A stretch of DNA of 64,000 nt, taken from contig CAYXQC010000003.1 in NCBI GenBank assembly GCA_964467385.1, positions 37,798-101,797 on the forward strand. The letters are read 5' to 3'. How positions within the stretch are numbered: position 1 is the stretch's first letter; the number at the start of each line of letters is the position of its first letter. Under the pieces are notes generated by a model. It made no database searches, was not told the origin of the DNA, and was given only the letters and a program-made list of their open reading frames with translations. This document shows positions 3,037 through 19,142 of the stretch, in pieces. The position numbers and the translations under genes were made by a program. This stretch comes from an uncultured Candidatus Saccharibacteria bacterium. GTDB lineage: Bacteria > Patescibacteriota > Minisyncoccia > Phycocordibacterales > CAIZLB01.

Positions 3037-4161
3037 TTAGTTCAATTCTTGCAATTTTCGAAGTGCGAGACCAAGTGCAGTAGAAAATTCGAGACCAGTA
3101 ACCTTTAACACATCTTCGAGAAAGGCTGGTGATTCTACTTTATTGAATGGAGTTCCCATTACAACTTCAGTTTGAAAATTCGCTCGTGCCATTTCAAGTA
3201 CCCCCTTCATTGATACACCCCCTCCTGTCAAAATCACCTTACTAATGGCTTTATTGAATTTTCGTTGATAGTTTAATATAACTGTATTTGCCTCAGAGAA
3301 AATATAATCAAGTGTCAAAGAAACAATCTCATAGATATTTTTTTCTTCACCTGGAGAACCTGCACCGAGATTTCGTTTCAAATGCTCCGCACGGTCAAAT
3401 GTCAGATTCATACCCTTCGAAATGCTTACGGTGATTTCCTGTGAGCCACGATTGATAATATGTGAATACTTCACAACCCCCTTTTCCAAAATATAAATCT
3501 TCGTAGAGGACGCACCCATATCAAAAATCATCACGGGCAGATTTTCACCAGCAAGAAGTGCACGTGTTGAGCTAAACATTTCTATTTCAAAGAAACTTGT
3601 GTTGAGTCCAGCATCACGCACAATTGAGCTGTACGTACTCAAGACATCATTGTGAATAGAGACCACAAGCACCTGAATCTTATGCTTATCTGAGACCTGA
3701 TTATTATCTTCATCAACACCCTCAGCAAAATCAAGATCGCTCGCAGAATCAGTTGGCACCACCCACCAATCCATAGTCACTTCATTGATAGGAACTGGAA
3801 TATATTTTCGTGCTTCAAGAGGAATCATTTCCTGAAGTTGATGCGGATCAGCTGACGGAAGATCAATAAGAGATACGAGACTTGATTTGAACGGAATAGA
3901 CACACCGGCGCTATTAGTAGTCACATTCGCCTCTTTGAGTACGTCTTTGATTGCCTCGGCAATTTTATCAGCCGGCAAGTTAGTAGATTGACCGACTGTC
4001 AACCCTGCGTATGGACCAAGTGCCAATTCACCATAGGTTTCAAGTACCGCTCGTCCTTTTTTCTTGCGAAGTTGTACAACTTTTATAGATGAAGAACCCA
4101 CATCAACACCAATGACACTCTCGTTAGGCTGCTTGAAGAAATTTTGAAGGAAATTTGACAT
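3037..4161 (-). CDS. pilM: Type IV pilus assembly protein PilM (actin-like ATPase fold)
   Basis: 374 aa; N-terminal IGVDVGSSSIKVVQL sugar-kinase/actin-fold phosphate-1 motif, overall PilM/FtsA-like pattern; first gene of the pilM-N-O arrangement. Confidence 0.8.
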   Translation of the reverse strand: MSNFLQNFFKQPNESVIGVDVGSSSIKVVQLRKKKGRAVLETYGELALGPYAGLTVGQSTNLPADKIAEAIKDVLKEANVTTNSAGVSIPFKSSLVSLIDLPSADPHQLQEMIPLEARKYIPVPINEVTMDWWVVPTDSASDLDFAEGVDEDNNQVSDKHKIQVLVVSIHNDVLSTYSSIVRDAGLNTSFFEIEMFSSTRALLAGENLPVMIFDMGASSTKIYILEKGVVKYSHIINRGSQEITVSISKGMNLTFDRAEHLKRNLGAGSPGEEKNIYEIVSLTLDYIFSEANTVILNYQRKFNKAISKVILTGGGVSMKGVLEMARANFQTEVVMGTPFNKVESPAFLEDVLKVTGLEFSTALGLALRKLQELN

Positions 4162-4223
4162 GTTCTAAGTACAATACGTCTACACGATGCGCTTGCTCTC
4201 TAGTATATATCACTCCCGTAACA

Positions 4224-5075
4224 ATGAAAATAGCAATTACTACATTAGCAATAAGGTTTTTTACAAATACAGTACGAATTATGCTCAATGGGCTCTTTTT
4301 CCTTATAGCTGTACTTTTTCCATCAAAGAGTATTAAACATAATGAAGTTGAAATAGGCGCAGAAATTTTCACGTCGCAAAGCAACAAACAATCAAAAGTT
4401 AAAATGGACAATTTGTGCACATTCACTGAAGCAAAAGTACCAGTTCTCTATAAATTTAACTATCGCAATCTAGAAATTAAACGACTGGTGTGGCAATTTA
4501 AATATTATAAAAATAAAGCATCTAGAGAAGCACTCGAAATACTCGGTGATCATCTGTATGACGAGCTTGTCTCTATAGTATCCGACCGTATCTGCGCAAT
4601 TCCCTTTCAAAAATCAGTTGTATTAGTACACTGTCCATCTTCGACTTATTTTAAAGGTGAAAAAGATTTTGATCATATGAAAGAATTACTTTTGTACATT
4701 GATTATGTCGGAAATACTCATTCGAAGGGATTCATCGAGCGACAATCTACGAATTTTTTTACAATTTGCACGCATGCCATTTTGCCAAATCTAAAAAGTG
4801 GCACACAGAAACAAGCACAACACTTTGGAAACCGTGCCGAAAGGTTTAAATGGTCAAAAGATAGATTTATAATTTCAGAAAGATTTGAAGAGTATTTTAG
4901 GCAATCTGTGATCGAAAATCCACTCGTAGAGCAACAAATGGCGTACAAACCGCATATACCATATATATATTGTATAGATGACGTAGTTACAACTGGGGCC
5001 AGTTTTGAAGCCATATCGGCTATGCTACAGTGCAAACTTGGCGTCAATGTAAATTGTGTCGCACTTTGCCACTAA
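4224..5075 (+). CDS. ComF-family phosphoribosyltransferase-domain protein (competence). Start uncertain: 4155, 4224 and 4404 are all possible.
   Basis: C-terminal PRTase signature IDDVVTTGAS; placement next to the pilus operon; no clear N-terminal zinc finger. Confidence 0.5.
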   Translation: MKIAITTLAIRFFTNTVRIMLNGLFFLIAVLFPSKSIKHNEVEIGAEIFTSQSNKQSKVKMDNLCTFTEAKVPVLYKFNYRNLEIKRLVWQFKYYKNKASREALEILGDHLYDELVSIVSDRICAIPFQKSVVLVHCPSSTYFKGEKDFDHMKELLLYIDYVGNTHSKGFIERQSTNFFTICTHAILPNLKSGTQKQAQHFGNRAERFKWSKDRFIISERFEEYFRQSVIENPLVEQQMAYKPHIPYIYCIDDVVTTGASFEAISAMLQCKLGVNVNCVALCH

Positions 5076-5104
5076 ATATGGTATCTTGTCTCTACAAACC
5101 ACAT

Positions 5105-5193
5105 GGAGACGTGTCAGAGTGGTCGAATGTGCCTCTTTGCTAAAGAGGTGGGCCTTTAAAAGGGTCCCGAGGGTTCGAATCCCTCCGTCTCCG
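5105..5193 (+). tRNA. tRNA-Ser (anticodon GCT), class II with long variable arm
   Basis: Acceptor stem GGAGACG/CGTCTCC, anticodon stem CCTCT/AGAGG with loop TTGCTAA, long variable arm, T-arm GAGGG-TTCGAAT-CCCTC, discriminator G. Confidence 0.8.
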
Positions 5194-5221
5194 CCTTGAC
5201 AATTTAGTATCGGCGTGACCC
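5174..5221 (+). repeat. attL-like direct repeat (tRNA-Ser 3' end plus downstream block)
   Basis: Identical 21 bp, then a diverged 9-nt patch and a second 18-bp block (TTAGTATCGGCGTGACCC) matching 18415-18432 at 16/18. Confidence 0.6.
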
Positions 5222-5270
5222 TATTACTCGCGGGAGTAGGGCGACCCACGTACCTACTAGATTGCACAAA

Positions 5271-5301
5271 ACACCAAGAGAATTCTCTTGGTGTTTTGTT
5301 G
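5271..5301 (+). terminator. Rho-independent terminator-like hairpin downstream of tRNA-Ser
   Basis: ACACCAAGAGA-ATT-CTCTTGGTGT followed by TTTGTTG. Confidence 0.5.
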
Positions 5302-5317
5302 TTTATATAATTATGAA

Positions 5318-6004
5318 ATGAATTTTGGGAAAGCTATTAAAACCATCACTAAACTTCTCAAGAAAGAAAAGCCTAAAACATTTAGCAGTTCTTGGATTTC
5401 TACCCGTTCTCCTCTCGTATATCACTTCATCAGAGTTAACTTTAGAACCGAAAATAACCACATAGACTGGGACAAGGTCACAGCGGCCCTCGATCCTAAG
5501 TATGCAAAGTGCTGGATGCGTTACAAACGCAAGGTTGCCAAGCCTTACGAGAATCAGATAGAGGTGGATATCATACTTACGAAGTACAAAGACAAGCTCT
5601 ACACCTTTGTCGCTCTTGTTGATGATGGTGATAAGGAAACAAGGAATCAGCTGATCATCGCTCTTGTCCGAATCGCCCAGAAAGGAAATATTCTCGCTCA
5701 ATTAGAACTTACGAAGTGGCTGAAGTATGTCGTCGATGATTGGGTCGATAAATATTACCCGCTATTTAAATGGAAGGGTTACACCGATGACATTGAAGAC
5801 AAGATCCATGGCTGTATTCGCTGTTACAAATACACCGGATCATTTCTTGGCTACTTGTTTAAAACGCTCGAATATTCTGGTCGTGGCATACGACCCCTTC
5901 AAGCATGGTCGCTTGATAAGAATGTCGGTGATGACGGTGCAACGATGATTGATTTCGTTGCTCAGGATAGTGAAACGGGAGAGGTGAAGTTGTTCGGGAG
6001 GTAA
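5318..6004 (+). CDS. Hypothetical protein (island cargo). Start probably at the internal ATG at 5318 rather than 5288, which overlaps the terminator.
   Basis: ORF track; no recognised motifs. Confidence 0.35.
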   Translation: MNFGKAIKTITKLLKKEKPKTFSSSWISTRSPLVYHFIRVNFRTENNHIDWDKVTAALDPKYAKCWMRYKRKVAKPYENQIEVDIILTKYKDKLYTFVALVDDGDKETRNQLIIALVRIAQKGNILAQLELTKWLKYVVDDWVDKYYPLFKWKGYTDDIEDKIHGCIRCYKYTGSFLGYLFKTLEYSGRGIRPLQAWSLDKNVGDDGATMIDFVAQDSETGEVKLFGR

Positions 6005-6023
6005 TTATTGATACTCGCTCTGT

Positions 6024-6866
6024 CTAAATTATTCTCCCGTCAATTTCGTGGAATAGATTACTGACCATGATAAGGCGACCGAGCGCATCGTGGTGCGGAA
6101 GTTGATCTTCGTCGCCGTGGCTAAGATTGTTTCTCCACCAGTGCATAATACCCATGGTGGTGAGCTTGAAGCCGAGTTGCTTATTGATCTCCTGCGGTGT
6201 TGATAGAGCGTTGAACTTTATTTTCGGGTTCTGTTCACTGAAAACAGCCGCCATCAAATCAGGTCCTTGCTTGTCATGAGTGCTTGTAAGGTCTTGGACC
6301 GTCTTCTCGAACCTTTCAAGAGCTTTCCTCACTGACTCGTTGATATGACCTTCGATGAACATCTTTTTGCAGTCAGGAAGAAGTGAGGGATGAAGAACGT
6401 ATGCATCCAAGATTTTCTGAATCGCTATCGGAGGCGGAACTGTCTTCGGTCTTTCCTTTGGAAGATTCATTGCCACAATTTCTGATTCAAGATCAATGTT
6501 GAGAGCCTTAAGTCGCGCTGAGAGTCCAAGAGCTTCAGCTTCCAATACGGGATCGCCTTTCTCGTGTCGCTTTTCTATCGCCTTCGGTAGCATCTCTCGC
6601 ACGAGGATTTTTATAGTTCTCGGCTTCTGGCAGTAAAGATTTCGCAGGAACTCGTAGAAAGATTCCTTTTTGTTGGCCGCCTTGGCGGGAAGATATTTCG
6701 ACAGACCCCTTTCTTTAGCAATGGTCGTCAAAGAAAAGGAGCTTCGGAATCCCGAAAGAGCAATGAGCTTCCCGAGCTGTTCCGCGAGTGCGCGGATTGC
6801 CTGAGTCTGCGGTGCTGTGACAGTTACTCTTTTCTTCGCAATCTTTTTCTTGGTTTTCTTTTTCAT
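6024..6866 (-). CDS. Hypothetical protein with a basic N-terminus and a C-terminal HEPN-like Rx4H motif. Possible Abi/toxin-like RNase domain.
   Basis: N-terminal MKKKTKKKIAKKR; C-terminal WRNNLSHGD fits the Rx4-6H HEPN signature; 4-nt gap to the upstream Zn-ribbon gene. Confidence 0.35.
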   Translation of the reverse strand: MKKKTKKKIAKKRVTVTAPQTQAIRALAEQLGKLIALSGFRSSFSLTTIAKERGLSKYLPAKAANKKESFYEFLRNLYCQKPRTIKILVREMLPKAIEKRHEKGDPVLEAEALGLSARLKALNIDLESEIVAMNLPKERPKTVPPPIAIQKILDAYVLHPSLLPDCKKMFIEGHINESVRKALERFEKTVQDLTSTHDKQGPDLMAAVFSEQNPKIKFNALSTPQEINKQLGFKLTTMGIMHWWRNNLSHGDEDQLPHHDALGRLIMVSNLFHEIDGRII

Positions 6867-6869
6867 AAA

Positions 6870-7400
6870 TTATTTGGTCGTGTGGACATGGAATCCGCAG
6901 GCTCGGCAGATTCCGTTTATGTTGGCATCTCCGTTTACGTGGAATTCAAAGTTTTCCTTACCGCAAACAGAGCAAACAACTCGACCGCCACTGCGTTTCG
7001 TGGCATCAATCGTATCCAGTATGTCTCTCACGTTCAGAACGTATTTGTTTACCTGTTCACGGTCGTTCAGGTATCCCTGCACCCAGAGATTCGTTGTGAT
7101 TCTTCCTGCAGATGTTTCCTTGTAGTGAATCTTTCCCTCGTTCAGAAGTTTCTCCCAGTACTGCCGTGTCTTGCCATATTCTCTAGCCACATCGCCAGAA
7201 GACATGAGTGAGGCGTTATGGGGAATATATCCCTGATTTTCCATATTTTCTACGCAGGCTCGGATGCCTTCAGCGAGCGCACTCTCTTTTTCCTCCTTGG
7301 AAAATTCGCCAGTCAAATCAACACCGAGGCTCAAAGTGCCACCACTGCTTGTGTTGGCGTGCCAATAGAATTTTCGTTTGTCGTCTTTGGTTGCAGACAT
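6870..7400 (-). CDS. Hypothetical protein with C-terminal CxxC...CxxC zinc-ribbon
   Basis: CSVCGKENFEFHVNGDANINGICRACGFHVHTTK at the C-terminus; co-transcribed orientation with 6024-6866. Confidence 0.4.
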   Translation of the reverse strand: MSATKDDKRKFYWHANTSSGGTLSLGVDLTGEFSKEEKESALAEGIRACVENMENQGYIPHNASLMSSGDVAREYGKTRQYWEKLLNEGKIHYKETSAGRITTNLWVQGYLNDREQVNKYVLNVRDILDTIDATKRSGGRVVCSVCGKENFEFHVNGDANINGICRACGFHVHTTK

Positions 7401-7538
7401 GGCATAAGTATATGCTTGTTGGTTTCTAAATGCAACCAGTTATCTAATACACACGATGTATCAGATAGTATTAGTTTGTATCAGATTAATACGGCTATAA
7501 GGTATGTAGCCGATTACGGCGGATTACAGCCGAAAGGC

Positions 7539-8888
7539 TTATTCCTTCACCAATGTCAGCGTTTTATCCTTGTATATAATTCTCGATCGCAGATTGGCCA
7601 ACAGCTCCCGCTTCTCACTCGTCATGCCTTCCTTGAGGATGTACTTGGCGTAGTTTCGGATATCGGTATCCTTGTCGGTCTTTATCTTCTCCGTTGCTCC
7701 AAGCACAGATCTTTGGAATATATTGTATCGATTTATCTCCTCCTCAAGCTTCTGCCTCATGCCAAGCTCGTTGATGTTCACCTTGTCGAGAATTTTCAGA
7801 AGTTCAGTAATCAGTTCTTCTTCACGAATATATTTGTTCTTGCAGTTTCGGTCCCTAGCTCGTGAGCATGAGTAGTAGATGTAGCGGTTGGCACCTCCGT
7901 CCTTTAGTTGCTTCCATTTCTCCTCAGCCGATATGCCTGATTGGCAGTATCCGCATGTGAAGAGTTTGGTGAAGGCGAACTCCTTCGTTTCTCGCACGAT
8001 CTGGTCGCGCTTCAACTGTGCTTTCGTTTTCTCGAACAGTTCTTGAGTGATCAAGGGCTGATGTTTTCCCTGATACCAGTTGCCGCTTTCCCTTGGTCTT
8101 TCAAATATTCCGTAGTAGAAGGGATTCTCTAGGATTCGATACACACCACTCAGGGTCAGAGGTCTGTTTCCACGTGTATGGAAATTCAGCTCGAACCTCA
8201 TCCAGTTGTATACCTTTCTTCCAGACCATTGCTCATATGCAACTTTCTCGAACATCTTCTTGATGATTGGCGCTCTCTGCGGATCCACAAGCACCTGACC
8301 TTTCTTGTCCATATGCTTTTGATTGAGATATCCAAGCGGTGCCGTTCCGACCCATAGTCCCATCTCGCATCGGGTTCTTAGTCCTCGCTTCACGTTGATG
8401 CCTCGATTGTCATTCTCCAATTTTGCTTGGCTACACAGAATCATCAGCATGAACTTGTCGTTCGGGCTGTTGGTGAATCTTTGGCCGTAGGTGCGGATGT
8501 CCTGCAGATAATTTCCGTCCATAAGATCGATCACTTTTCCGAGATCGCCTGCGTTTCTTGAAATACGGTCTGGTGCCCACGTCAGGATGCCGTTAAACTT
8601 TCCTTGCTTGATCTCATCCACGATCTCATTGAAGACGGGGCGCTGCCCAGTCTCCTTAGCCGAGTGCGATTCTCGCTTCATGGTCACGATCTCCAATCCT
8701 TCTCTTTCTGCCAGTTGGAGCATCTCATTGATCTGGCTATCAATGCTCAAAACCTGCCGTTCCTCCGATTCCGTCGACTTTCTTGCGTAAAGGCAGTATT
8801 TCACCTTTACGGGGCTTGCTACTTTGGCCGCAGTCCCTAATGGCTCTGGTCCTTGTATTTTTGTCATACAACACAAGGAATGACGCAA
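7539..8888 (-). CDS. Large serine recombinase (resolvase/invertase catalytic domain + recombinase domain + zinc-ribbon). True start may be an internal Met.
   Basis: N-terminal YARKSTESEE (the catalytic Ser within the Y-x-R-x-S-T motif), an approximately 450-aa multi-domain length, and C-terminal cysteine pairs CGYC...SCSRARDRNC. Confidence 0.8.
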   Translation of the reverse strand: MRHSLCCMTKIQGPEPLGTAAKVASPVKVKYCLYARKSTESEERQVLSIDSQINEMLQLAEREGLEIVTMKRESHSAKETGQRPVFNEIVDEIKQGKFNGILTWAPDRISRNAGDLGKVIDLMDGNYLQDIRTYGQRFTNSPNDKFMLMILCSQAKLENDNRGINVKRGLRTRCEMGLWVGTAPLGYLNQKHMDKKGQVLVDPQRAPIIKKMFEKVAYEQWSGRKVYNWMRFELNFHTRGNRPLTLSGVYRILENPFYYGIFERPRESGNWYQGKHQPLITQELFEKTKAQLKRDQIVRETKEFAFTKLFTCGYCQSGISAEEKWKQLKDGGANRYIYYSCSRARDRNCKNKYIREEELITELLKILDKVNINELGMRQKLEEEINRYNIFQRSVLGATEKIKTDKDTDIRNYAKYILKEGMTSEKRELLANLRSRIIYKDKTLTLVKE

Positions 8889-8959
8889 CTCGCCCCAAGA
8901 GTCCAGAGCGTCCCGAGTACCTCGAAGTTGGTAACTTTTGCCTGTGGAAAACCCAATAG

Positions 8960-9225
8960 GTGGTTAAGGAAGTTAACCAAAATCGGTAAATTTCGTTAAC
9001 CAGAACTGGTTAACTTTGTTAACACACAAAAGAAAGAGAAATATAGAGAAACTTAGTATTAGGTACAACCTGTGGAAAAACTAGTCTAGTAGGTAGACTA
9101 GTCTAAAATTCAGACTACTTTTGGTCTATTTAGTAGACCGCAAGTAGTCTACGAAGTAGACACACAAAATCTAGGAAACAAAGGGAAACCTAGTATTAGG
9201 GATCGGGTGTGGACAAAGGGTCAAA
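8960..9225. promoter_or_regulatory. Palindrome/repeat cluster upstream of the recombinase gene. Candidate operator or recombination site.
   Basis: - Four GTTAAC-containing palindromes, including the 20-bp GTTAACCAGAACTGGTTAAC at 8995-9014.
- A 23-bp palindrome CTAGTCTAGTAGGTAGACTAGTC around 9081-9105.
- Further GTAGAC/GTCTAC half-sites to 9172.
- About 37-bp imperfect direct repeats (ACYTAGTATTAGG...TGTGGA.AAA) at 9049-9087 and 9187-9223 bracketing them. Confidence 0.4.
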
Positions 9226-9531
9226 AGCCACGACCTCTTTCCTTAATTTCTCAAAATCTCTGAAAACCCTGTTGTATATCCTTATGACTTTTCCTTTGCG
9301 CTTCTTGGTATCGCCATTCTCAAGAAAATCGACGAGGTCATCGTCGATGAAGGAAGCGAGAGAAATGTATGAGGCGACCAATAGCCTAATCCGCTCCCTG
9401 ATCGCCATCTTCAGATGCCTCTTTGACTCAGGCAACTTTGAGATACGGTTAAAAGGAGTAGAGCCTGTTGGCTCATGGTATTTGAAATGCTTTGAGGCTT
9501 CTATGATTGCTTCGATATCATCGTCTTTCAC
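9196..9531 (-). CDS. Hypothetical small protein (island)
   Basis: ORF track only; acidic/basic mixed, no motif recognised. Confidence 0.3.
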   Translation of the reverse strand: MKDDDIEAIIEASKHFKYHEPTGSTPFNRISKLPESKRHLKMAIRERIRLLVASYISLASFIDDDLVDFLENGDTKKRKGKVIRIYNRVFRDFEKLRKEVVAFDPLSTPDP

Positions 9532-9634
9532 CCCCTAACTGATGACGCTGTTCGCAAAGCCTGTCTAGACCCCTCAAAAGTCTCGAGGTTGGTAACCGAC
9601 TACACAAATTCCGATATGTAAGTTATGGTACTAA

Positions 9635-10633
9635 ATGCCTCTAAAAATGCTTCACTTAAGGTCGTTTTTATGCTTTAATATAGCCATTATGGAATTAGTT
9701 CGACTATTCAAAAATCTTACTAAAAACGATGCTGCCATTGCAGGTGGCAAAGGAGCCTCTTTAGGTGAGATGTCCCAAGCAGGAATCCCGGTCCCTCCGG
9801 GATTTGTTGTATTGTCGGAATCCTTCGAGCAATTTCTTCGAGAAACTGATCTTATTCAGGAAATTGATGCAATTCTCGATAACTTAAGTCACAAGGAGAT
9901 TCATCTAGTGGAAGCAGCATCAGAAAAAATCCGCGCACTTATTCTTTCCAAAGAGATGCCGAAAGATATTGCAACTGAAATAAGTAAATCTTCCAAAGAA
10001 CTTGGTTCAGAATTTGTAGCCGTACGATCGTCGGCCACTGCAGAGGATGGCCAAGATCACTCATGGGCAGGTCAACTCGAGTCTTATTTGAACGTAAAAG
10101 AAAATGATGTACTTAATAAAGTTAAGCACTGTTGGGCTTCGCTCTTTACCCCACGTGCAATCTTTTATCGTTTTGAAAAAGAACTTCACACAACAAAGAT
10201 TTCTGTGGCGGTTGTGGTGCAAAAAATGGTTGATTCAGAAATTTCTGGAATTGCATTCTCGGTTCATCCTGTAACTGAAGACAAGAACCAACTTATTATT
10301 GAAGCAGGATATGGATTGGGAGAAGCAATAGTGTCGGGATCGATTACCCCCGATAGTTATGTGGTTGAAAAAGAACCTCGGAAAATTCTCGATATCAATA
10401 TAGCAACACAAACCGAGGCACTCTATAAAAATACGGCGGGAGGAAATACATGGAAAAACATCCATGAACCAAAGGCAAGCTCTCAGGTATTAAAGGAGGT
10501 TCAAATTCTTGAGCTTGCTGATATAATTTTAAATATCGAGAAACATTACGGATTCCCCTGTGACATCGAGTGGGCGTTTGAAAGCGGAAAGTTTTATATT
10601 GTGCAAAGCAGACCCATTACTACATTAACTTAA
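9635..10633 (+). CDS. PEP-synthase / pyruvate-phosphate-dikinase N-terminal ATP-binding (PPDK_N) domain protein. Forms the N-terminal part of a rifampin-phosphotransferase-like enzyme.
   Basis: AIAGGKGASLGEMSQAGIPVPPGFVV and VAVRSSATAEDG motifs are typical of the PPDK_N nucleotide-binding domain. The ORF ends at an in-frame TAA three codons before the next ORF. Confidence 0.7.
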   Translation: MPLKMLHLRSFLCFNIAIMELVRLFKNLTKNDAAIAGGKGASLGEMSQAGIPVPPGFVVLSESFEQFLRETDLIQEIDAILDNLSHKEIHLVEAASEKIRALILSKEMPKDIATEISKSSKELGSEFVAVRSSATAEDGQDHSWAGQLESYLNVKENDVLNKVKHCWASLFTPRAIFYRFEKELHTTKISVAVVVQKMVDSEISGIAFSVHPVTEDKNQLIIEAGYGLGEAIVSGSITPDSYVVEKEPRKILDINIATQTEALYKNTAGGNTWKNIHEPKASSQVLKEVQILELADIILNIEKHYGFPCDIEWAFESGKFYIVQSRPITTLT

Positions 10634-10642
10634 ATCAAATTT

Positions 10643-12181
10643 ATGAATACAAACATCGAACAATTATTACAAAAATATACATTAACTCCCGATTTACTCA
10701 CTGATCCATTGATGAGTCTTGATATGGCTAAACTTGGGGACGACATCACTTCTTTTAAAGAAGAAGGTCTTTCCCAAGGATTTATTCGTCGTCGCATCGT
10801 GCTTTTTATGGATGGCTATCGATATTCGCTTCGTGCAGCAGAAAAGAGATGGGGTATTGATTTTGGATTTTATGAAACTGGAAAAGAACCAGTGAAGAAA
10901 GTATATTTTTCAGGAAAATTTAACGATAATGCAGCCGTGGTTTGGTTACAGAAGATGAACGAAGATAAAGACTTTGGAAATAATCTCGTTGAAGAACTCA
11001 AGACAATAATTGAAATGGAGAAATACTTGGCCGCTTCTGTCTCACAAACAGAACTGTCTAAGGAACAAATTAAAAAACACTTGGAGAATCATCTTTCGTG
11101 GTGGATTCAATTTTTTGAATTTGGATTTCTGTGGTTTTGTGCAGAAAATATTCAACAAGACACAAACGCAAAAATAGAAAAGATCTGGAAAGATACACCA
11201 GAATCGCTTAAGGAATTTCTTGAGGGTGTTTACAGACCAATGGACTTACCTGTATCAAGTGTAGAACAGCGAGATATTCTTGATATCAGCCAATTACAAG
11301 GAGAGGAACTTGAAAAAGCGCTCGACGCCCATTGGAAGAAGTACAAGCACCTATCTCTCCATAATATTGATGATGAGCCTTTTGATAAGGACTACTATGT
11401 AAGTCGAATTAAATCTCTACAAAAAGAAGGAGAATATGCAAAACAAAAAGACTTATTAACCCATGCTGATGCAGAAATTGGTGAAGCGACAAGCCTTCTC
11501 AAGGGTGCGGATATTCCAGAGGAACTAAAAAATAGAATCGAGTTTGTTCGCTGGTTCATGTTTCTTCGAACTGAATCGGTCGACAATATGATGCTAGTGA
11601 ATTCCTCATACAGACATGTATTCGATTCTCTATCAAAGTTATTTGATTTACCGATAGAGGCAGTACTCAATATGACATACAAGGAAATATTTGAGAGTCT
11701 TGAGGCTGGTAAACTTACTCTTTCTAAAGAAGTTATACTGGATAGATTAGAAAATGGTTATGCTTACTTTATTGGATATCGAACTGAAGCATTGCTTACT
11801 GGAGATGATAGACAAAAACTTATTGATATCCTACATCCTGCAACAAACGAAGAAATTATTAAGGAAATAAAAGGACAGATTGCATACAAAGGTAAGATTC
11901 AAGCGATAGCACGAGTCATTCTTGACCGAAAAAATGCTTCCGAGCTACAAGAAGGTGAAATTCTTGTGACCGCCATGACATCTCCAGACTTCGTGCCAGC
12001 CATGAAGATTTCAGCGGGAATCATTACCAATGAAGGAGGAGTACTGTGTCATGCCGCTATCATGTCTCGCGAACTACGAAAGCCTTGTGTTATAGGTACT
12101 AAGACGGCTACCGATATAATAAAGACTGGGGATTTGGTTGAATTAGATGGTGATACTGGAATAATTAAAATTCTAAGCTAG
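10643..12181 (+). CDS. PEP-utilising-enzyme mobile (swivel His) domain protein. C-terminal part of the same RPH-like phosphotransferase.
   Basis: C-terminal GGVLCHAAIMSRELRKPCVIGT is the PEP-utilizers phosphohistidine domain signature, at the extreme C-terminus as in rifampin phosphotransferases. Same reading frame as 9635-10633. Confidence 0.7.
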   Translation: MNTNIEQLLQKYTLTPDLLTDPLMSLDMAKLGDDITSFKEEGLSQGFIRRRIVLFMDGYRYSLRAAEKRWGIDFGFYETGKEPVKKVYFSGKFNDNAAVVWLQKMNEDKDFGNNLVEELKTIIEMEKYLAASVSQTELSKEQIKKHLENHLSWWIQFFEFGFLWFCAENIQQDTNAKIEKIWKDTPESLKEFLEGVYRPMDLPVSSVEQRDILDISQLQGEELEKALDAHWKKYKHLSLHNIDDEPFDKDYYVSRIKSLQKEGEYAKQKDLLTHADAEIGEATSLLKGADIPEELKNRIEFVRWFMFLRTESVDNMMLVNSSYRHVFDSLSKLFDLPIEAVLNMTYKEIFESLEAGKLTLSKEVILDRLENGYAYFIGYRTEALLTGDDRQKLIDILHPATNEEIIKEIKGQIAYKGKIQAIARVILDRKNASELQEGEILVTAMTSPDFVPAMKISAGIITNEGGVLCHAAIMSRELRKPCVIGTKTATDIIKTGDLVELDGDTGIIKILS

Positions 12182-12183
12182 AT

Positions 12184-13026
12184 ATGAAAGAGTCTTTTCC
12201 AAACAATTCCGACGCTATAATCACCAGACATTCTATTCGAGGGGAAAACTCTGAATATGAAGGGCTGTCACCAGAAGGTATTGAGAAAGCAAAAGAAAGG
12301 GCAAAGGATTTCGTGGAAATTATTGAAAAATCTGAACCAGGTACGGTTATATTTTTTGGCGGTGGTTCAACAGAAGCTCGAACAACCTCCACTTTGGAAG
12401 TTTATGTGGATGAAACAAAAAGCTTGTTAAAAGAGAAAGAGGGTGTCTTGTTTTTCGATCAGGAATCAATATCAGAAAAAGCACAGCGTGGTCACCTGTC
12501 CGCAGCAGAAGAGCTTAAAAAAGAAGCAGATGATAATCCTGAGGCAAAAGTAGTTGTAGATCTACCGCTTGTTATTAAGGATTTTCTTAAAGACGAATGG
12601 TGGTATGAGGAAGATGGAACGGTTAAAGAGCCGTGGCAATCTTTATTAGATAAACATGGGAAAGATTACTCATCCATAGTTCGAGACTGGTTTGAGACTC
12701 AGGGAATGTATGATGGTGAGCAAAAGGTTCCTAAACCTATTGAAGTTGCTGAAAGCTATCTAAATGGAATTAAACGATTACAAGGTTTTGTTAGAAAGTT
12801 TTCAGGAGATAGGAACGTTAAAGTTGTAGTTGTCGGGCATAGCATTCAGATGGATGCTTTACTTACTTATTTGGCAAATGATGGGGTTGTAGATTTAGAA
12901 GGATTTGAAAATATCGGAGACAAAGTTGTAGATACAACTGAAATGTCTGTTATTGAACCTGATGAAGATGGAGGCATTCATCTTTCTTATAGGGGTAAAG
13001 AGTTTATTTTTGGAGAAAATCAATAA
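12184..13026 (+). CDS. Histidine phosphatase superfamily (phosphoglycerate-mutase-like) protein
   Basis: N-terminal ITRHSIRGEN (RHG-type catalytic motif) and VVVGHS later; start 2 nt after the preceding stop. Confidence 0.55.
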   Translation: MKESFPNNSDAIITRHSIRGENSEYEGLSPEGIEKAKERAKDFVEIIEKSEPGTVIFFGGGSTEARTTSTLEVYVDETKSLLKEKEGVLFFDQESISEKAQRGHLSAAEELKKEADDNPEAKVVVDLPLVIKDFLKDEWWYEEDGTVKEPWQSLLDKHGKDYSSIVRDWFETQGMYDGEQKVPKPIEVAESYLNGIKRLQGFVRKFSGDRNVKVVVVGHSIQMDALLTYLANDGVVDLEGFENIGDKVVDTTEMSVIEPDEDGGIHLSYRGKEFIFGENQ

Positions 13027-13031
13027 ATAAT

Positions 13032-15128
13032 CTAAATCCCAATATATGGAAATTGGGGTAAGTCATCTTCCTCAAAATCTTCCTGCTGTGCTGGTCTCTG
13101 AATAATTCTCTTGTCTTTTGCAATAGTGAGTACAAGCGCATCGGGAATAGACGAGTCGATACCTTCTTCAGTAAGTTCATCTCGATCAATCATTTTTCTC
13201 TTGCCATTCGTATCGGCATAAACCATGTACAGAAGATCATCGAAGACATGTCTCCCTACAAGCTTTCCAATCCTTAACCATCCTGTCAGTTTTGAATATG
13301 CCCTCGCCCAATTGTCGGCAAACAGGTTGCCATCAAACTGTGGTTGCTCATTCATAGTGATTCCGTACCGTTGTCGATTCCCATATTTGTTGATGTTGAA
13401 ATGACCAACTGCGAGATGTCTCAATAGATTGCACAATTCCTGCCCTCGATCTGCTTTGTCGATAAAAATGTTCTCGTCCGATATCGGCACGTCATGTATC
13501 TTTGCGAGTTCGATAACTTTTAAGACGACTGTCGTCACATCCTGCATCGGCTCATGATACAGAACCTCAGCCGCATTCTCAGCTCTAAGCACGATAGTTG
13601 AGTAAGTCCTGTTTTTGTCTGCCAACACCACTCCCAGTCTTTTGTCTCCGAAATACGAAACCCTTTCCTGATAGCTGTCATTAAGAAGTCTTTCATCAAA
13701 GAGTGCATGATACCCCTTTGGTATATTCGATTCCTGATCCATCATGCTCCATACGAGGATGCAGAATGCATCTGAAAGGTCATCGTGCTTTTCCGTGCCA
13801 AAGCCCACGAGCTGTTCGATCAGCTTCTCAGCGCCATATCGAGGGAAGAGCACTGTTCCTGATTGAATGTGGTGTGAGATGAGTGACAGTCTAGCTCGCT
13901 TATCCGATCCTTGAGTCTTGTATTCCTTTGCGGGAAAGTTTTCCGATTTCAGATGGTCGATGATCGACTTCTGGTATCCCGCGTTCTCGATCCATACGTG
14001 TGCGTTTCCTAAAGTCTTTGACAGCGACTTAATCTTCTCAATCGTCTTCGGGAAATCCATTCGCTCGTTCACAGGATTCGGCAACACATAAATCTTCAAT
14101 GCCTTCTTTCTGCCGTATATCTTTCCTGAAACCATCGCTGTATAGTCCGCATTGTCCTTCTCGCTGATTGCGGGATCAATGCCGGTAGCGGTGAACCGAC
14201 ACGCATCAGCAGGCAGTGAATCGTAATATCGTATCCATTCAGGACGAATTACTTGATCATCATCTGCAATAATCTGGAGCATGTATTCTCTCTGCCATGC
14301 TTGAAGGCTCGGTACTGATTTTCTCAAAGTTTCTACTTCAGCATCCGTTCGGTACTTGTCCTTCCATAAAGGCTGATTATTCTCATCAAGGAATGGATAC
14401 GCCCTTGCAACGCCATCCATTCGACCTTCGAGAATGGCTTTCTTCAATCTCATGATGATCGAATCGTTATGAAGCTTCGTGCCGATCACAATTAATCTCG
14501 TGTCCTTGTCTCCAAGAGGAATGATGTCTCCCATAAGCCAGTTGAACATCTTGTCTCGACTCTCTTGGGTTTTGACGATATCCAAATCCTCAAGGTCGTC
14601 AGCAATTATCAAATCTGGCCTATGCGCCCCGTGCTTGATACCTCGAATCGAGTTATCGATTGAAGCTACTGTCACTCTCGCTCCGTATTTCGGCAACACG
14701 ATTGATACCGCACGCCACTCATCATTCGGCTCCTCGAATGGTCCGAGGTCTAATCTAAGTAATCGGTTGTGCTCAAGCTCCAGTTTGATGTTTGCAAGAT
14801 ACTGCCGTGCTTGACTTTCGGTCTTGGCGATAATTAAAACAAATTTTCTCTGCTGCATTCCGAGGATAGACCAGATCGCATAGGAAGTCCCCATGATCGT
14901 GGTCTTTCCTGATCCTCGGAATGCTTCGATAACCATGGTCTTATGAGACGCTTCGGTGAGTTCAAACAATTCCTTATGAAATTGCGCCGTCTTGTATTTA
15001 ACATAGTGGGAAAAGTAGATGTGGAAGAACCAGTGATGACAGGCTCTTGTAGTCGCACGCCTCACTCGTTGATTCTTAACTATCTCATCAATCTTTTCTG
15101 CCGATACTTCGGTGTCGTGGTTATGCAT
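13032..15128 (-). CDS. Phage terminase large subunit-like protein (ATPase + nuclease)
   Basis: Walker A EAFRGSGKTT after an N-terminal extension of about 60 aa; Walker B-like LIIADDLED; approximately 700-aa length; immediately preceded by a small HTH protein with overlapping stop/start. Confidence 0.6.
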   Translation of the reverse strand: MHNHDTEVSAEKIDEIVKNQRVRRATTRACHHWFFHIYFSHYVKYKTAQFHKELFELTEASHKTMVIEAFRGSGKTTIMGTSYAIWSILGMQQRKFVLIIAKTESQARQYLANIKLELEHNRLLRLDLGPFEEPNDEWRAVSIVLPKYGARVTVASIDNSIRGIKHGAHRPDLIIADDLEDLDIVKTQESRDKMFNWLMGDIIPLGDKDTRLIVIGTKLHNDSIIMRLKKAILEGRMDGVARAYPFLDENNQPLWKDKYRTDAEVETLRKSVPSLQAWQREYMLQIIADDDQVIRPEWIRYYDSLPADACRFTATGIDPAISEKDNADYTAMVSGKIYGRKKALKIYVLPNPVNERMDFPKTIEKIKSLSKTLGNAHVWIENAGYQKSIIDHLKSENFPAKEYKTQGSDKRARLSLISHHIQSGTVLFPRYGAEKLIEQLVGFGTEKHDDLSDAFCILVWSMMDQESNIPKGYHALFDERLLNDSYQERVSYFGDKRLGVVLADKNRTYSTIVLRAENAAEVLYHEPMQDVTTVVLKVIELAKIHDVPISDENIFIDKADRGQELCNLLRHLAVGHFNINKYGNRQRYGITMNEQPQFDGNLFADNWARAYSKLTGWLRIGKLVGRHVFDDLLYMVYADTNGKRKMIDRDELTEEGIDSSIPDALVLTIAKDKRIIQRPAQQEDFEEDDLPQFPYIGI

Positions 15129-15558
15129 GGTCGATTGTAGTTAATCCGAGAGCCTCACGCACCATCTTTTCTTCTTGAGGAGTGAGAGCTTCTTCCTCTG
15201 CGGTCTTGGTGGTAAGTTCGACCTTGTTTCTATACTTAGGATGATGCTGTCTGAGCCACAATTGGATTGCAGGAAAATTCTTTTCCTTGATGAGTGTAAT
15301 GAGCTGACTTTCGGAAAGATCATTGATCATTTCCTCGCCGTCCTGCATGGCCTCGTCAGTCGCTTTCTTGAATTTCGCATCATCACGTCTCCATCGGTAG
15401 TAGGTGCTACGACCAATATTGCTTCTCTCACATGCAATCTGCACGATCGGTATCTTTCGGAGCTGTTCCAAGACGACTTTCTGTTCAACTTTGTTTCTTT
15501 TTAGGGTTGATTCTCTTTTCATAATTTCATTGCTTTTAAGTTTGTTAATTTTTCCCAT
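15121..15558 (-). CDS. Small HTH DNA-binding protein. Probable terminase small subunit.
   Basis: 145 aa; helix-turn-helix IACERSNIGRSTYYRWRR; 8-nt overlap with the terminase large subunit start. Confidence 0.4.
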   Translation of the reverse strand: MGKINKLKSNEIMKRESTLKRNKVEQKVVLEQLRKIPIVQIACERSNIGRSTYYRWRRDDAKFKKATDEAMQDGEEMINDLSESQLITLIKEKNFPAIQLWLRQHHPKYRNKVELTTKTAEEEALTPQEEKMVREALGLTTIDHA

Positions 15559-16349
15559 CTAATAATTGCGGTCTGTACGTACTCGGGATCAAGCTCTATG
15601 GCGATACATGCTCGCTTGGTCTGCTCGCACGCCAATAGACATGTTCCAGAGCCAAGAAAGGCATCGTAAACGACATTGCCAATGCGAGTGCTATTGAGGA
15701 TGAGATGTCGAATAAGTGGCACAGGCTTAGTCGTAGGGTGGAATGGACTCTTGTTCGGCTTCGGATGAACGATGACACTCTTGTCTTTTGATTTTAAGAA
15801 TTCATGCGTTCCATACCATCCGTATGCGATGAGTTCATGCATCGGTGCATAATCCATTCTTCCAACCACTGCTTGAGTTTTCACCCACACAATCAATTGA
15901 GCGAATTTACAGCCGATTGATTTCATTCCGTCACGCAAGGCGAATATCATCTTGTCGGAGTTGAAGATGTACAGAGCATTCTTCCGTTCAAGATGTGGAG
16001 TTACCGCACTAAGCCAGTCTTCAGTGAACTTCTTGTATTCCTCGTCAGACTGAAGGTGATCATTCTCAATCTTCTTGCCTTTGAGCAATGCTTTAAAGTT
16101 CTGCTTGCTCTCCGCAACCGCAACTCCGTAGGGCGGATCGGAAATGATTGCCTTAATTTTTCTTTTACTAACCACCCTTGAGACGAACTCCTTGTCTCTC
16201 GAATCACCGCAAGCAATCGTGTGTTCGCCAAGTTGAAAGATGTCTCCCGCCTTAATTGAGTTTTGTGACTTTTTCATTTGGAGAGAGTTGTCTAAAGCGG
16301 TTGATAATGAGTTGGCAGAATATCGGTTCCATTTCGCAGAGATACGCAA
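15519..16349 (-). CDS. DNA N6-adenine/N4-cytosine methyltransferase (N6_N4_Mtase family). Real start probably the internal Met near 16277.
   Basis: IISDPPYG catalytic motif and C-terminal FLGSGT SAM-binding motif. Confidence 0.75.
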   Translation of the reverse strand: MRISAKWNRYSANSLSTALDNSLQMKKSQNSIKAGDIFQLGEHTIACGDSRDKEFVSRVVSKRKIKAIISDPPYGVAVAESKQNFKALLKGKKIENDHLQSDEEYKKFTEDWLSAVTPHLERKNALYIFNSDKMIFALRDGMKSIGCKFAQLIVWVKTQAVVGRMDYAPMHELIAYGWYGTHEFLKSKDKSVIVHPKPNKSPFHPTTKPVPLIRHLILNSTRIGNVVYDAFLGSGTCLLACEQTKRACIAIELDPEYVQTAIIRWEKLTNLKAMKL

Positions 16350-17538
16350 TGCGTTTCAACTGTTCGCACGCTGACAGGATGCTTCCTGATCCGCCAGTAA
16401 TATCGAGGACGATATCACCAGGGCGACTACACCTACGCAATGCTTTCTCATGCAAGGTAGGAGGCTTCTGTGTCGGATGTGCATATTCCTGTGACGGCAG
16501 TCGCTTCACGAGCCAGATATTGAGCATGTCTAGAATATCCTCGACTAATCTGTTGCCAGTCGTGGTTTCTTTGTTCAATACTTCATTGAGATTTTTAATC
16601 TTGTCAGACAAGTAAGGTTTTCCTCTCGTGCCGTATACGCAATATTCGGTGACCTTGTTGAATGCCACCTGCGGTGTCGGGGAAGCATTGTCTTTAACCC
16701 ACAAGCAGAGTCGCTTTGAATCGATACCAAGCTCCTTGTAGAGTTCTTGGAATAGCCAAACGTATCGCTCATCGCACCAGAAGAAAACGTGAGCGTCTGG
16801 CTTGGTCACGCTCAATGCGTTTTGGATAAGTGTCTTTGCGAATGTTTTATACTCGTCATCCGTTTTGCTGTCGTCAGTTGTTCCACCATATTTAGCTTTA
16901 TTGCCGACACCTTTGTCATACGAGAGACCGATGTTGTATGGAGGATCGGTATTGATCATGTCGGCAAGATTTTCATTCATGAGAAACTTGATCATGTTTT
17001 GATCTGTAGAATTGCCGCAGAGAAGTCTGTGGCGACCGAGAGCAAAGTAGTCGCCGAATTTTATATCGGTTTCCTTTATTTTCTCCAACTCTTTTTCCTC
17101 ATCGAAGTTGTCGTCACTCACTTCGAGATTGTCATCAAAGATATTAGTGAGATCGGTTGAATCAAAGCCTGCCATGAGCAGGGTGTCGATGTCGAAGTCG
17201 CTCGCCAGTATCTCCCAGTCCCAAGAGCCGCCTGAACGATTGCTTGTTAATAAATATTGTTTGAACTCAGAAGGGGTGAGCTTGCGATTCGGTGTTCTCA
17301 CCTCGATTTCTTCTTCACCTCGACCTAGCAGTTGCAGCGCTTTGATGCGCTGATGGCCTGCGACGATCTTTCCGTCAGTGTTGATCGCAGGAAGCTCTGC
17401 AAGATTGAACTTCTTCAAGCTTTCCTTTAAGTCTTCCATCTGCTTGTCCGTGATTTTCCTCGGATTCTTCTCGTAGGGCAGAAGATCGTTTACCCGGCGC
17501 TTTTCGGTACGCCATACCAGTGGTGTTAATTTGGACAT
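16252..17538 (-). CDS. ParB-like nuclease domain fused to DNA methyltransferase (phage-type ParB-MTase)
   Basis: N-terminal ParB/Srx-like region (KITDKQMEDLKESLKKFNLAELPAINTDGKIVAGHQRIKAL), INTDPPYN catalytic motif, C-terminal DITGGSGS SAM motif. Confidence 0.75.
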   Translation of the reverse strand: MSKLTPLVWRTEKRRVNDLLPYEKNPRKITDKQMEDLKESLKKFNLAELPAINTDGKIVAGHQRIKALQLLGRGEEEIEVRTPNRKLTPSEFKQYLLTSNRSGGSWDWEILASDFDIDTLLMAGFDSTDLTNIFDDNLEVSDDNFDEEKELEKIKETDIKFGDYFALGRHRLLCGNSTDQNMIKFLMNENLADMINTDPPYNIGLSYDKGVGNKAKYGGTTDDSKTDDEYKTFAKTLIQNALSVTKPDAHVFFWCDERYVWLFQELYKELGIDSKRLCLWVKDNASPTPQVAFNKVTEYCVYGTRGKPYLSDKIKNLNEVLNKETTTGNRLVEDILDMLNIWLVKRLPSQEYAHPTQKPPTLHEKALRRCSRPGDIVLDITGGSGSILSACEQLKRIAYLCEMEPIFCQLIINRFRQLSPNEKVTKLN

Positions 17539-17599
17539 ATATATTTACGGTTATTAATAATAGGCACAGTATGCGTTCCACAACTTGATCTAAATGTAG

Positions 17600-17775
17600 G
17601 AATTACTCTTGCTCCTCACTTAATCATGCGTGTGAAAAAGTGATTTTTGTGTTGCATTACTCTTCTGTCCTGAGACAATGGTAAATCCCAAAAAGTGACA
17701 AATCGTGGTGCATTACTTTTGCCATCCATAATGCTACTCGTGAAAAAATGCAAAAAGGTGTGCATTACTTTCTCT
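17600..17775. repeat. Periodic iteron-like repeats upstream of the ParB-MTase/terminase operon
   Basis: Four copies of ..TGCATTACTYTT / ATTACTCTT at 17603, 17656, 17712 and 17764 (spacing 52-56 bp). The three downstream copies at 17630-17664, 17690-17720 and 17739-17772 are preceded by AAAAAGTGA-type blocks. Confidence 0.45.
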
Positions 17776-18172
17776 ACCCAGAATCGTATGCTGGCCAACG
17801 TATCCGATTAGTGGGTATTGAAAATGCTACTGGATAAAAAACGTGTAAAATCGTGCGGAATCAATTTCACTTTCTTATCCTCTAAAAGCGTAGCGGACCC
17901 GAACCCTTCTGTCTGGGGGAATTACCTGGCAGAGAATGAATATGAAAATCAGTCCAGCAATCCTCTGAAAATATGCAAAATCAAAATGGCACACTGCTTT
18001 GGCACAGTGTGCTGTTCCAATACCTCTGAAATACCCTTATGTTGCTTGGCGAAAGATGTCGAAACCATCCTTACGGGGCTTGTTTGAAACACTGCCCCTG
18101 CGTGTGCCAAATTGTGCCAATTTGGGAAAGGGAGACCCCGACCCACGAACCCCAAATTGATCAGTCCAAATA

Positions 18173-18229
18173 TGCTAAAATACCCTTACAAGGTCTCACC
18201 CATGGGGTACTTAACCCACGATGCCCGCA
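18173..18229 (+). repeat. Copy A of a 57-nt duplicated block with an extended -10 promoter-like start
   Basis: TGCTAAAATACCCTTA ... GGTACTTAACCCACGATGCCCGCA; followed by hairpin ACCAGTTTTAACTGGT. Confidence 0.4.
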
Positions 18230-18384
18230 TTGACGATACGAACCAGTTTTAACTGGTGAGTGTCGGCAACTTTCTGATACAGTAGGAAGCGAAGCTTTTG
18301 GGGATTCGAAAAGGTTCTCCCATATTTTCGAGAATGAGCGTAGCGAGTTTGAGAAAATGGGAAACCTGTACTGAAGCTGTAAGC

Positions 18385-18432
18385 TTCGAATCCCTCCGTC
18401 TCCGCATTAAGAACTTGGTATCGGCATGACCC
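18385..18432 (+). repeat. attR-like direct repeat (displaced copy of the tRNA-Ser 3' end, no 5' half)
   Basis: TTCGAATCCCTCCGTCTCCGC identical to 5174-5194; no complementary T-stem or acceptor 5' strand upstream. Confidence 0.6.
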
Positions 18433-19080: not shown

Positions 19081-19142
19081 ATTATCGCTAATGGCAAGAT
19101 TAGACTAGTGACCCACATACCTAATTTCAGTCTCAAAAAACT

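Follow-up and report, generated by a model that had tools for sequence, protein, structure and literature searches.

A probable two-component rifampin-phosphotransferase-type dikinase and its histidine-phosphatase-fold partner as cargo of an integrative element in a Candidatus Saccharibacteria genome

The 64,000-nucleotide (nt) stretch of contig CAYXQC010000003.1 from an uncultured Candidatus Saccharibacteria bacterium, referred to here as the window, carries three consecutive plus-strand genes that form a single operon-like cassette. The first open reading frame (ORF1, 9689-10633) begins at its true start, the ATG at 9689, ends with the TAA at 10631-10633 and encodes a stand-alone ATP-grasp (PPDK_N) subunit of 314 amino acids (aa). 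ORF2 (10643-12181) encodes a 512-aa protein in which a helical, putatively substrate-binding domain (residues ~1-400) is followed by a C-terminal phosphohistidine swivel domain with His470, and ORF3 (12184-13026) encodes a 280-aa protein of the histidine-phosphatase superfamily with a large insertion. As listed, the ORFs 9635-10633 and 10643-12181 occupy one reading frame (both coordinates are 2 mod 3), and the TAA is followed only by the three codons ATC AAA TTT of the 9-nt spacer ATCAAATTT (10634-10642) before the ATG of ORF2. ORF3 begins 2 nt past the TAG at 12179-12181 that closes ORF2. This layout of a shared frame, a TAA, three codons and a third gene 2 nt downstream had been described in a first-pass annotation and is confirmed by the sequence and the ORF list. 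The total of ~845 aa given there for the two kinase products must be corrected to ~826 aa, since ORF1 starts at ATG 9689 and not at 9635; homologues and public gene calls begin with MELVR at this position.

ORF1 matches Pfam PPDK_N (PF01326) at 1.3e-99 with no further domain, and it covers just the N-terminal third of the phosphoenolpyruvate (PEP) synthase, rifampin phosphotransferase (RPH) and PigC models, aligning with positions 5-338 of the PEP synthase model NF005057 at 7.7e-101. Its orthologues in L007-L011 (L-numbers denote related loci compared with the window) are 314 or 315 aa, and ORF1 is accordingly annotated here as a predicted ATP-grasp subunit and nothing else. In ORF2, residues 436-506, a region that includes GGVLCHAAIMSRELRKPCVIG, match the Pfam PEP-utilizers mobile domain at 6.2e-25, so that the ATP-binding domain in ORF1 and the phosphohistidine domain at the end of ORF2 that had been proposed are both recovered. 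The predicted structure of ORF2 (predicted local distance difference test, pLDDT, 94.6) is mainly helical over the N-terminal ~400 residues and beta-rich in the C-terminal swivel domain. The swivel motif T462-N-E-G-G-V-L-C-H470 has its T, G, G and H conserved in 84/84 sequences of the family alignment and Leu468 in 81/84. It fits T/SxxGGxxxH, the signature of RPH and of two-component dikinases (PMC12167813), with Leu at the His-2 position where PEP synthase and pyruvate phosphate dikinase (PPDK) have a regulatory Thr. No TIM-barrel PEP/pyruvate domain (PF02896) was found in ORF2 by Pfam, and the protein stops 6 residues past the swivel domain. For the helical domain, RPH is the sole match in the PDB: positions 145-497 of the ORF2 family profile align with residues 499-866 of RPH-Lm, and the first ~145 residues of ORF2 are without an RPH counterpart. 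The RPH residues R666 and E667, which contact the product phosphate and are essential in the second half-reaction (PMC4844700), align with ORF2 R309-T310-E311, conserved in 75/84, 76/84 and 58/84 sequences, respectively. Set against both families, the middle domain is thus of the RPH type with no match to the PEP-synthase TIM barrel, and the order of ATP, substrate and C-terminal His domains that the first-pass annotation had attributed to RPH is reproduced, as two genes.

How these genes are to be read depends on whether the TAA at 10631-10633 interrupts one gene or separates two. The junctions of L007 and L008-L013 have the TAA and the ATG as in the window, with the TAA standing after ...PITTL(N/S) in every relative examined, yet the spacer there is 4 nt and places the ORF2 homologue in the +1 frame. 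The relatives that share this stop and start are 82-92% identical in protein sequence. The stop is the native gene boundary of a two-subunit family. The window genes share a frame by accident, through the 5-nt difference in spacer length (9 nt versus 4 nt); for adjacent genes this happens by chance one time in three. The TAA is no artefact of one contig's assembly, since ORF1 products that end in ...PITTLT are recorded for two NCBI contigs (185 kb and 313 kb) and the stop is conserved in diverged relatives. Strong purifying selection acts on both genes at divergences near synonymous saturation, as seen from the ratio of nonsynonymous to synonymous substitution rates (dN/dS), which is 0.076 for ORF1 versus L007 (dS 1.07), 0.053 for ORF2 versus L008 (dS 0.79) and 0.072 for ORF2 versus L007 (dS 1.28). 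Of the 542 relatives that a protein search with ORF2 retrieved, the best 120 include more than 80 stand-alone proteins (495-515 aa, 45-92% identity) in which PF00391 is present and PF01326 absent; where named, their hosts are Patescibacteria or Pacearchaeota. When the first 400 residues of ORF2 served as the query, a whole-library search turned up no more than 40 cluster representatives in 1.84 billion, and nearly all full-length matches to this N-domain are 460-510 aa. For this reason, the substrate domain of ORF2 is taken to mark a small clade in which the stand-alone protein is the normal state.

Three explanations of the junction had been put forward in the first-pass annotation, namely a recent nonsense mutation, programmed readthrough and a domain-boundary split with reinitiation, together with the proposal to check whether homologues are fused or split at this point. 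The closest relatives are split at the same TAA/ATG. A recent nonsense mutation, or pseudogenisation, of a once-fused RPH-like gene of ~830 aa would account for two ORFs in one frame with a single stop and three codons between them, and the wider superfamily does contain fused relatives (for example, 760-830 aa in L025 and L048). However, loci diverged to dS 0.8-1.3 keep both the stop and the ATG that follows it, with their genes in different frames, separate proteins of 314 aa and ~512 aa are the usual form, and dN/dS is 0.05-0.08 on either side of the stop. Readthrough of the stop codon, or another form of recoding that makes a fused three-domain protein besides the ORF1 product, would draw on the same common frame and the short spacer, but the 4-nt spacer would put the downstream product out of frame in every relative examined. 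Moreover, spacer length is not conserved, a recoding signal is not seen at the junction, and the neighbouring genes terminate normally at TAA and TAG. Because the relatives keep the stop and the start and yet lie in the +1 frame, both the fused-gene and the readthrough readings are excluded for practical purposes, and we assign a negligible probability to each. The domain-boundary split, with its stop and start conserved in relatives, was the right option of the three, and a putative reinitiation (translational coupling) at the ORF1-ORF2 junction is plausible. For annotation, the lesson is that an in-frame stop between the halves of a known multidomain enzyme can be a native subunit boundary, and such a stop is not to be labelled a pseudogene, a sequencing error or recoding.

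Together, ORF1 and ORF2 reproduce the RPH architecture with two components, as does the known class of small-molecule dikinases that includes PpsAB of Thauera, CreHI of Corynebacterium and HpeHI/AcvAB of Rhodococcus and Sphingobium (PMC12167813). PpsAB, CreHI and HpeHI resemble the cassette in having a separate ATP-grasp (PPDK_N) subunit of ~35-40 kDa, a second subunit that joins an RPH-like helical domain to a C-terminal swivel His in T/SxxGGxxxH without the regulatory Thr, and a phosphatase also encoded in the operon, as with AcvF, which accompanies AcvAB (10.1101/2022.04.28.489975). They differ from it in the length of the second subunit (~600-640 aa versus 512 aa for ORF2), in gene order (the window cassette, unlike theirs, starts with the ATP-grasp gene), in the partner phosphatase, which is of the haloacid dehalogenase (HAD) type there and has the histidine-phosphatase fold in ORF3, and in their hosts, since cassettes of the window type occur in Patescibacteria or DPANN archaea without aromatic catabolism. 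By sequence, ORF2 falls outside the PpsA/CreH/HpeH clade (about 45% pairwise identity): its N-domain has no match to PpsA-type models, and the PRK08296-type models NF006149-NF006153 match only the swivel region (ORF2 residues ~389-511) at 59-86 bits against cut-offs of 578-730, for instance 86 bits against 578. RPH-Lm (PDB 5FBS/5FBT/5HV1) likewise combines an ATP-grasp domain, a helical substrate domain and a C-terminal swivel His, and the aligned R666/E667 region adds to the likeness, but RPH is a single polypeptide of ~865 aa without an associated phosphatase, unlike the two kinase genes and ORF3 of the window. With PEP synthase and PPDK, the shared features are the ATP-grasp domain (ORF1) and the swivel domain (ORF2); in ORF2, unlike in those enzymes, the swivel domain is terminal and not central, no TIM barrel is present and Leu replaces the regulatory Thr, and both proteins score far under the PEP synthase/PPDK equivalog cut-offs.

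ORF2 itself appears to be no RPH, because its first ~145 residues are unmatched and its scores lie below the RPH equivalog cut-offs, with 67.2 bits for ORF2 and 290.4 bits for ORF1 against 999 bits for NF041857, and 50.7 and 199.7 bits, respectively, against 1700 bits for NF000283. The conserved N-domain residues of the ORF2 family are mostly charged or polar (R51, E208, Q209, H230, Y234, R255, R303, E348 and R368), and this predominance suggests a ligand that would be polar or anionic and not a hydrophobic macrocycle. What is novel in the cassette is the narrowly distributed substrate domain together with the histidine-phosphatase-fold partner, as element cargo. Broader scans place the genes only coarsely: PADLOC gave no defence-system match for ORF1-3, PHROGs yielded no more than a generic "kinase" family, with the ATP-grasp and swivel parts as the matching regions, and a genome-contig scan with the ORF2 alignment was dominated by the universal swivel motif and returned distant paralogues instead of orthologues. 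A scan of viral contigs with the ORF2 family gave swivel-level matches only (35-55% identity over ~100 aa), which rules out ORF2 as a typical phage gene. A transcription-factor role resembling that of haloarchaeal PspR was also set aside, as the catalytic motifs are intact and nothing points to DNA binding.

ORF3 had been recognized as a PGM-type histidine phosphatase, and this assignment holds at the level of fold. Pfam His_Phos_1 (PF00300) is matched at 3e-5, with 24.2 bits against a cut-off of 21.7, and the AlphaFold2 model (pLDDT 92.6) retrieves with Foldseek, at probability 1.0, the phosphoserine phosphatase PspA, PhoE, GpgP and the cofactor-dependent phosphoglycerate and bisphosphoglycerate mutases dPGM/BPGM (top PDB hits include 4ij6, 1h2e and 4qih). 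Template modelling (TM) scores to these structures are 0.38-0.58, lowered by an insertion of about 80-100 residues. Like these members of histidine phosphatase branch 1, ORF3 has the fold, and the His of its RH motif, the Arg of R-T-x-S-T and the His of GHS are candidates for the nucleophile, the second Arg and the second His of the catalytic core; unlike them, it carries the insertion, its sequence similarity is barely detectable and the RH Arg is not universal. Within the ORF3 family of 18 sequences, H16 (in T-R-H-S), G218-H219-S220, T70 and T252-E253 are invariant, and R66, T67 and S69 of R66-T67-x-S69-T70 are present in at least 90%. A sequence search of ORF3 against the PDB gave nothing significant, no sequence similarity to SixA was detected, and hhalign of the ORF3 family with the canonical His_Phos_1 protein of L007 aligned only 53 columns round the GHS motif at a probability of 1.7%. 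The link between ORF3 and canonical His_Phos_1 thus appears to be one of fold and motifs, and the model indicates that ORF3 is a divergent histidine-phosphatase-fold protein. Its family has just 18 members in 5.8 billion clusters, and for 9 of the 18 the longest contig has the same length as the longest contig of an ORF2 homologue, a sign that they share contigs; adjacency as such is seen in loci L001-L016.

The coupling of kinase and histidine phosphatase that the first-pass annotation had noted is real and conserved. Hidden Markov model scans place an ORF3-family gene directly 3' of an ORF2-type gene in L001, L004, L008-L013 and the window, and beside other swivel genes in L023, L049, L055 and L072. 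In L008-L011, where ORF2 is 92% identical, the three genes follow in the same order and encode a PPDK_N protein of 315 aa and proteins of 511 aa and 287 aa, and L007, with ORF2 at 82% identity, has a 314-aa gene and a 512-aa gene followed by a canonical 202-aa His_Phos_1 gene (1.1e-37) that replaces ORF3. As judged from sequence identities, the cassette is mosaic: ORF1 is 87% identical to L007 and 76% to L008, ORF2 is 92% identical to L008 and 82% to L007, and ORF3 is 63% identical to L004 and only 48% to L008. In L004, the gene upstream of the ORF2 orthologue encodes a 691-aa protein in which an ATP-grasp domain is fused to a different helical-plus-swivel module, and more swivel and histidine-phosphatase pairs follow downstream. 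A 53%-identical relative in L001 (4155-8385) has the ORF2-ORF3 pair with no ATP-grasp gene within 6 kb. From the mosaic identities, the replacement in L007, the fusion in L004 and the absence of a nearby ATP-grasp gene in L001, it follows that the functional triad is conserved and that its members can each be swapped, fused or provided in trans. The ORF2-ORF3 pair of L001 lies divergent to a gene for cofactor-independent phosphoglycerate mutase (iPGM).

Beyond these close relatives, 78 genome loci were retrieved through the swivel motif, and stand-alone swivel-domain genes stand in tandem in many of them: at least two in 30/78, at least three in 22/78 and at least four in 14/78. A single stand-alone ATP-grasp gene lies beside the swivel genes in 12 of these loci. 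Across L019-L089, from Patescibacteria and DPANN archaea, tandems of 2-6 stand-alone helical-plus-swivel (PF00391) genes are found (e.g. L028, L035, L049, L058 and L065), and L026 (1994 aa, 2938-8922) and L041 (2019 aa, 4366-10425) each encode one ATP-grasp domain fused to four swivel modules. Interleaved with the arrays are genes for several His_Phos types, HAD and HD hydrolases, a PGM/PMM phosphohexomutase, a phosphotransacetylase and a hexapeptide transferase. No description of swivel-gene arrays in the candidate phyla radiation (CPR) or DPANN was found in the literature searched; one study of DPANN genomes assigned genes of this kind to phenylphosphate synthase, although the phenol pathway is otherwise absent, and noted the missing carboxylase (PMC8091004). 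A 76-kb JGI contig (the L009 contig of P0009) carries at least nine consecutive PF00391 genes of 330-498 aa on one strand, a run broken by opposite-strand genes for LMWPc, His_Phos_1 and a 201-aa protein of no known family.

The cassette lies within a 13.2-kb integrative element (5174-18432) that is integrated at a tRNA gene and has a slot for cargo. The target is tRNA-Ser(GCT) at 5105-5195 (plus strand; ARAGORN), whose 3' end supplies the first 22 nt of a 48-nt direct repeat. The copies of this repeat at 5174-5221 (inferred left attachment site, attL) and 18385-18432 (inferred attR, with the duplicated tRNA-Ser 3' end) were located by repeat search and are 88% identical. Between them, a large serine recombinase (7539-8888, minus strand; Pfam Resolvase, Recombinase and Zn_ribbon_recom) is 59-99% identical in sister elements. 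A minus-strand gene for a 111-aa protein (9196-9531) bounds the slot, has no Pfam or PHROG match and is 88-92% identical in L120, L121, L122 and L129. On the other side of the cassette, also on the minus strand, lie genes for the large terminase subunit TerL (13032-15128; phrog_38, 1.1e-77; 62-95% identical in sister elements), a small terminase subunit-like helix-turn-helix protein (TerS, 15121-15558; phrog_4044, 2.6e-10) and two DNA methyltransferases (15519-16349 and 16252-17538; PF01555, 6.8e-31 and 3.4e-29), the last three conserved in sister elements. The GC content is 0.44-0.48 between the repeats and 0.36-0.40 outside them (about 0.39 just to the left and about 0.40 beyond attR). No capsid, portal or tail gene is present in 5174-18432, a scan of viral contigs with TerL gave nothing, and the element is either satellite-like or degraded.

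Eleven related loci, the L120-L129 family among them, share the backbone MT2-MT1-TerS-TerL-slot-111-aa gene-recombinase, and their slot genes are always on the opposite strand and vary in content, with ORF1-3 in none of them. The cargo consists of CysRS and GluRS in L120, a ThyX-like protein in L121/L122, AAA and VWA proteins in L129, and a NUDIX-like protein (recognized from sequence only) with a Pfam-supported methyltransferase in L126. The GC content of the cassette is host-like (0.36-0.41) against 0.44-0.48 in the remaining element, and the relatives in L004 and L007 sit among ordinary cellular genes (FtsW and SecDF in L004, NUDIX genes in L007). Host-like GC, varied slot content in the sisters and the cellular setting of these relatives together identify the cassette as recently captured DNA of the host lineage (Patescibacteria) in a variable cargo slot. 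The mobile-element context that had been suspected for these genes is therefore borne out by the repeats at tRNA-Ser, the serine recombinase, the GC contrast and the backbone shared with sister elements.

Several further features of the element were observed. A minus-strand gene at 6024-6866 encodes a HEPN-like protein (Pfam Hypoth_Ymh, 9.9e-21; PADLOC hits PD-Lambda-3_B and Aga_HEPN), a candidate for a role in defence or abortive infection. Five half-palindromes of the type TAGTCTAC are clustered within ~70 nt (9077-9152) in the gap that separates the genes for the recombinase and the 111-aa protein. The motif TAGTCTAC occurs at chance frequency across the window as a whole, and the cluster may be an operator or a recombination-directionality site. 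A 62-nt direct repeat of 79% identity (18168-18229 and 19138-19199) flanks the right attachment site.

How might the three proteins work together? We hypothesize a reaction sequence whose steps are taken from RPH, PpsAB and HpeHI (PMC4844700; PMC12167813). ATP would be bound by ORF1, the swivel domain of ORF2 would dock on ORF1, and His470 would attack the beta-phosphate. Inorganic phosphate would be released from the gamma-phosphate and AMP would leave. The swivel domain would then return to the helical domain of ORF2 and pass its phosphate to a bound small molecule, with R309/T310/E311 taking the place of RPH R666/E667 at this transfer. ORF3 may subsequently strip the phosphate off, acting on the product or on an intermediate formed later, or undo the modification by other means, in a manner that would parallel the phosphatases accompanying known two-component dikinases. 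Our confidence is high for the architecture, that is, the native split and the cargo status. Small-molecule dikinase chemistry of ORF1 and ORF2 is reasonably likely by analogy with the characterised enzymes, and a role of ORF3 as phosphatase on the dikinase product is put forward tentatively. Taken as a whole, the cassette is probably a native-split two-component RPH-type dikinase with ORF3 as its histidine-phosphatase-fold partner, captured as element cargo.

Several observations weigh against this reading. The most serious is that phosphorylation and dephosphorylation of one molecule, with no enzyme between the two steps, would constitute a futile cycle; characterised systems place a carboxylase or an oxidase between the two, and the window cassette has none. 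In addition, only ~160 of the 400 residues of the ORF2 N-domain superpose on the RPH rifampin-binding domain, and the Arg of the ORF3 RH motif (R15) is present in 15/18 family members and replaced by Glu in 3/18. A promoter and terminator scan around the cassette found promoter-like sites to be fewer than in shuffles, with none upstream of 9689, and gave no convincing promoter or terminator.

Because a kinase paired directly with a phosphatase seems futile, two other readings of ORF3 stay alive. One is a phosphorelay in which phospho-His470 of ORF2 is passed to His16 of ORF3 as the acceptor, no small molecule is phosphorylated, and the transfer primes a dPGM-like mutase or phosphotransferase that would otherwise depend on a bisphosphate cofactor. 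A relay would make sense of a kinase and phosphatase pair that is otherwise hard to rationalise on one metabolite, of the finding of ORF3-family proteins only beside ORF2-type or other swivel genes, and of the phospho-enzyme types (several His_Phos, PGM/PMM phosphohexomutase) that adjoin swivel genes in the arrays. However, the helical domain of ORF2 keeps an RPH-like phosphate-contact motif and a conserved polar pocket, and the arrays also hold HAD and HD phosphatases. Moreover, ORF2 pairs of 92% identity accompany ORF3 of 48% identity, and a canonical 202-aa His_Phos_1 can replace ORF3; this replacement and the failure of ORF2 and ORF3 to diverge in step favour a generic catalytic role of ORF3 over a specific protein pair. 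We regard the relay as unlikely. The other reading makes ORF3 a protein phosphohistidine phosphatase that discharges phospho-His470 and so regulates the dikinase. SixA, a member of the histidine-phosphatase superfamily, dephosphorylates phospho-His proteins, and both the fold of ORF3 and its tight linkage to ORF2 would suit such a role, but a constitutive discharger co-transcribed with the dikinase would amount to an ATPase, ORF2 and ORF3 do not co-diverge, and ORF3 lacks detected similarity to SixA, which together make this role improbable. The first-pass annotation had also raised an antibiotic-modifying function, that is, a phosphotransferase for rifamycin or another drug mobilised by the element as resistance cargo, for which the RPH-like architecture and the mobile location both speak. 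The RPH equivalog models, however, are far under cut-off, the N-terminal ~145 residues of ORF2 are unmatched in RPH, and the mostly charged or polar conserved residues of its N-domain contrast with the RPH rifampin pocket, described as hydrophobic (PMC4844700). A resistance kinase would also have no need of a dedicated phosphatase, and the cargo of sister elements is of the housekeeping type (aminoacyl-tRNA synthetases, ThyX and the like), so that this function is very unlikely.

If the preferred reading of a two-component dikinase with a phosphatase partner is correct, two-component small-molecule dikinases would extend beyond aromatic catabolism to a small clade, confined to Patescibacteria, that has a different substrate domain and a dedicated histidine-phosphatase-fold partner and that a small integrative element can carry from genome to genome. 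The arrays invite a broader hypothesis, to which we give a low probability: Patescibacteria and DPANN archaea would possess a modular phosphorylation system not yet described, with the cassette as its smallest mobile unit. In such a system, one ATP-grasp charger would serve many interchangeable modules of a substrate domain and a swivel His, arranged in arrays of up to six genes or in four-module polypeptides, and the ORF3-type partners would be phospho-acceptors or primed enzymes, more than mere phosphatases. The histidine-phosphatase-fold proteins would then take part in a protein-histidine relay, for example in cofactor-independent priming of a mutase in a minimal metabolism. If true, phosphorylation by a shared charger with multiple modules would be a previously unrecognised part of the metabolism of ultra-small symbionts.

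As a whole, the window is chromosomal DNA from a Patescibacteria (Paceibacteria-like) bacterium. Elsewhere in it lie genes for SecY, for the ribosomal proteins L6 and S5, and for FtsH, RecG, RNase J and PilM/PilO, with SecY 82% identical to Candidatus Pacebacteria proteins. A minus-strand gene at 49820-52780 encodes a 985-aa protein with TraG/TraD-type coupling-protein and HerA-like ATPase signatures, which suggests a second mobile or conjugative region in the window.

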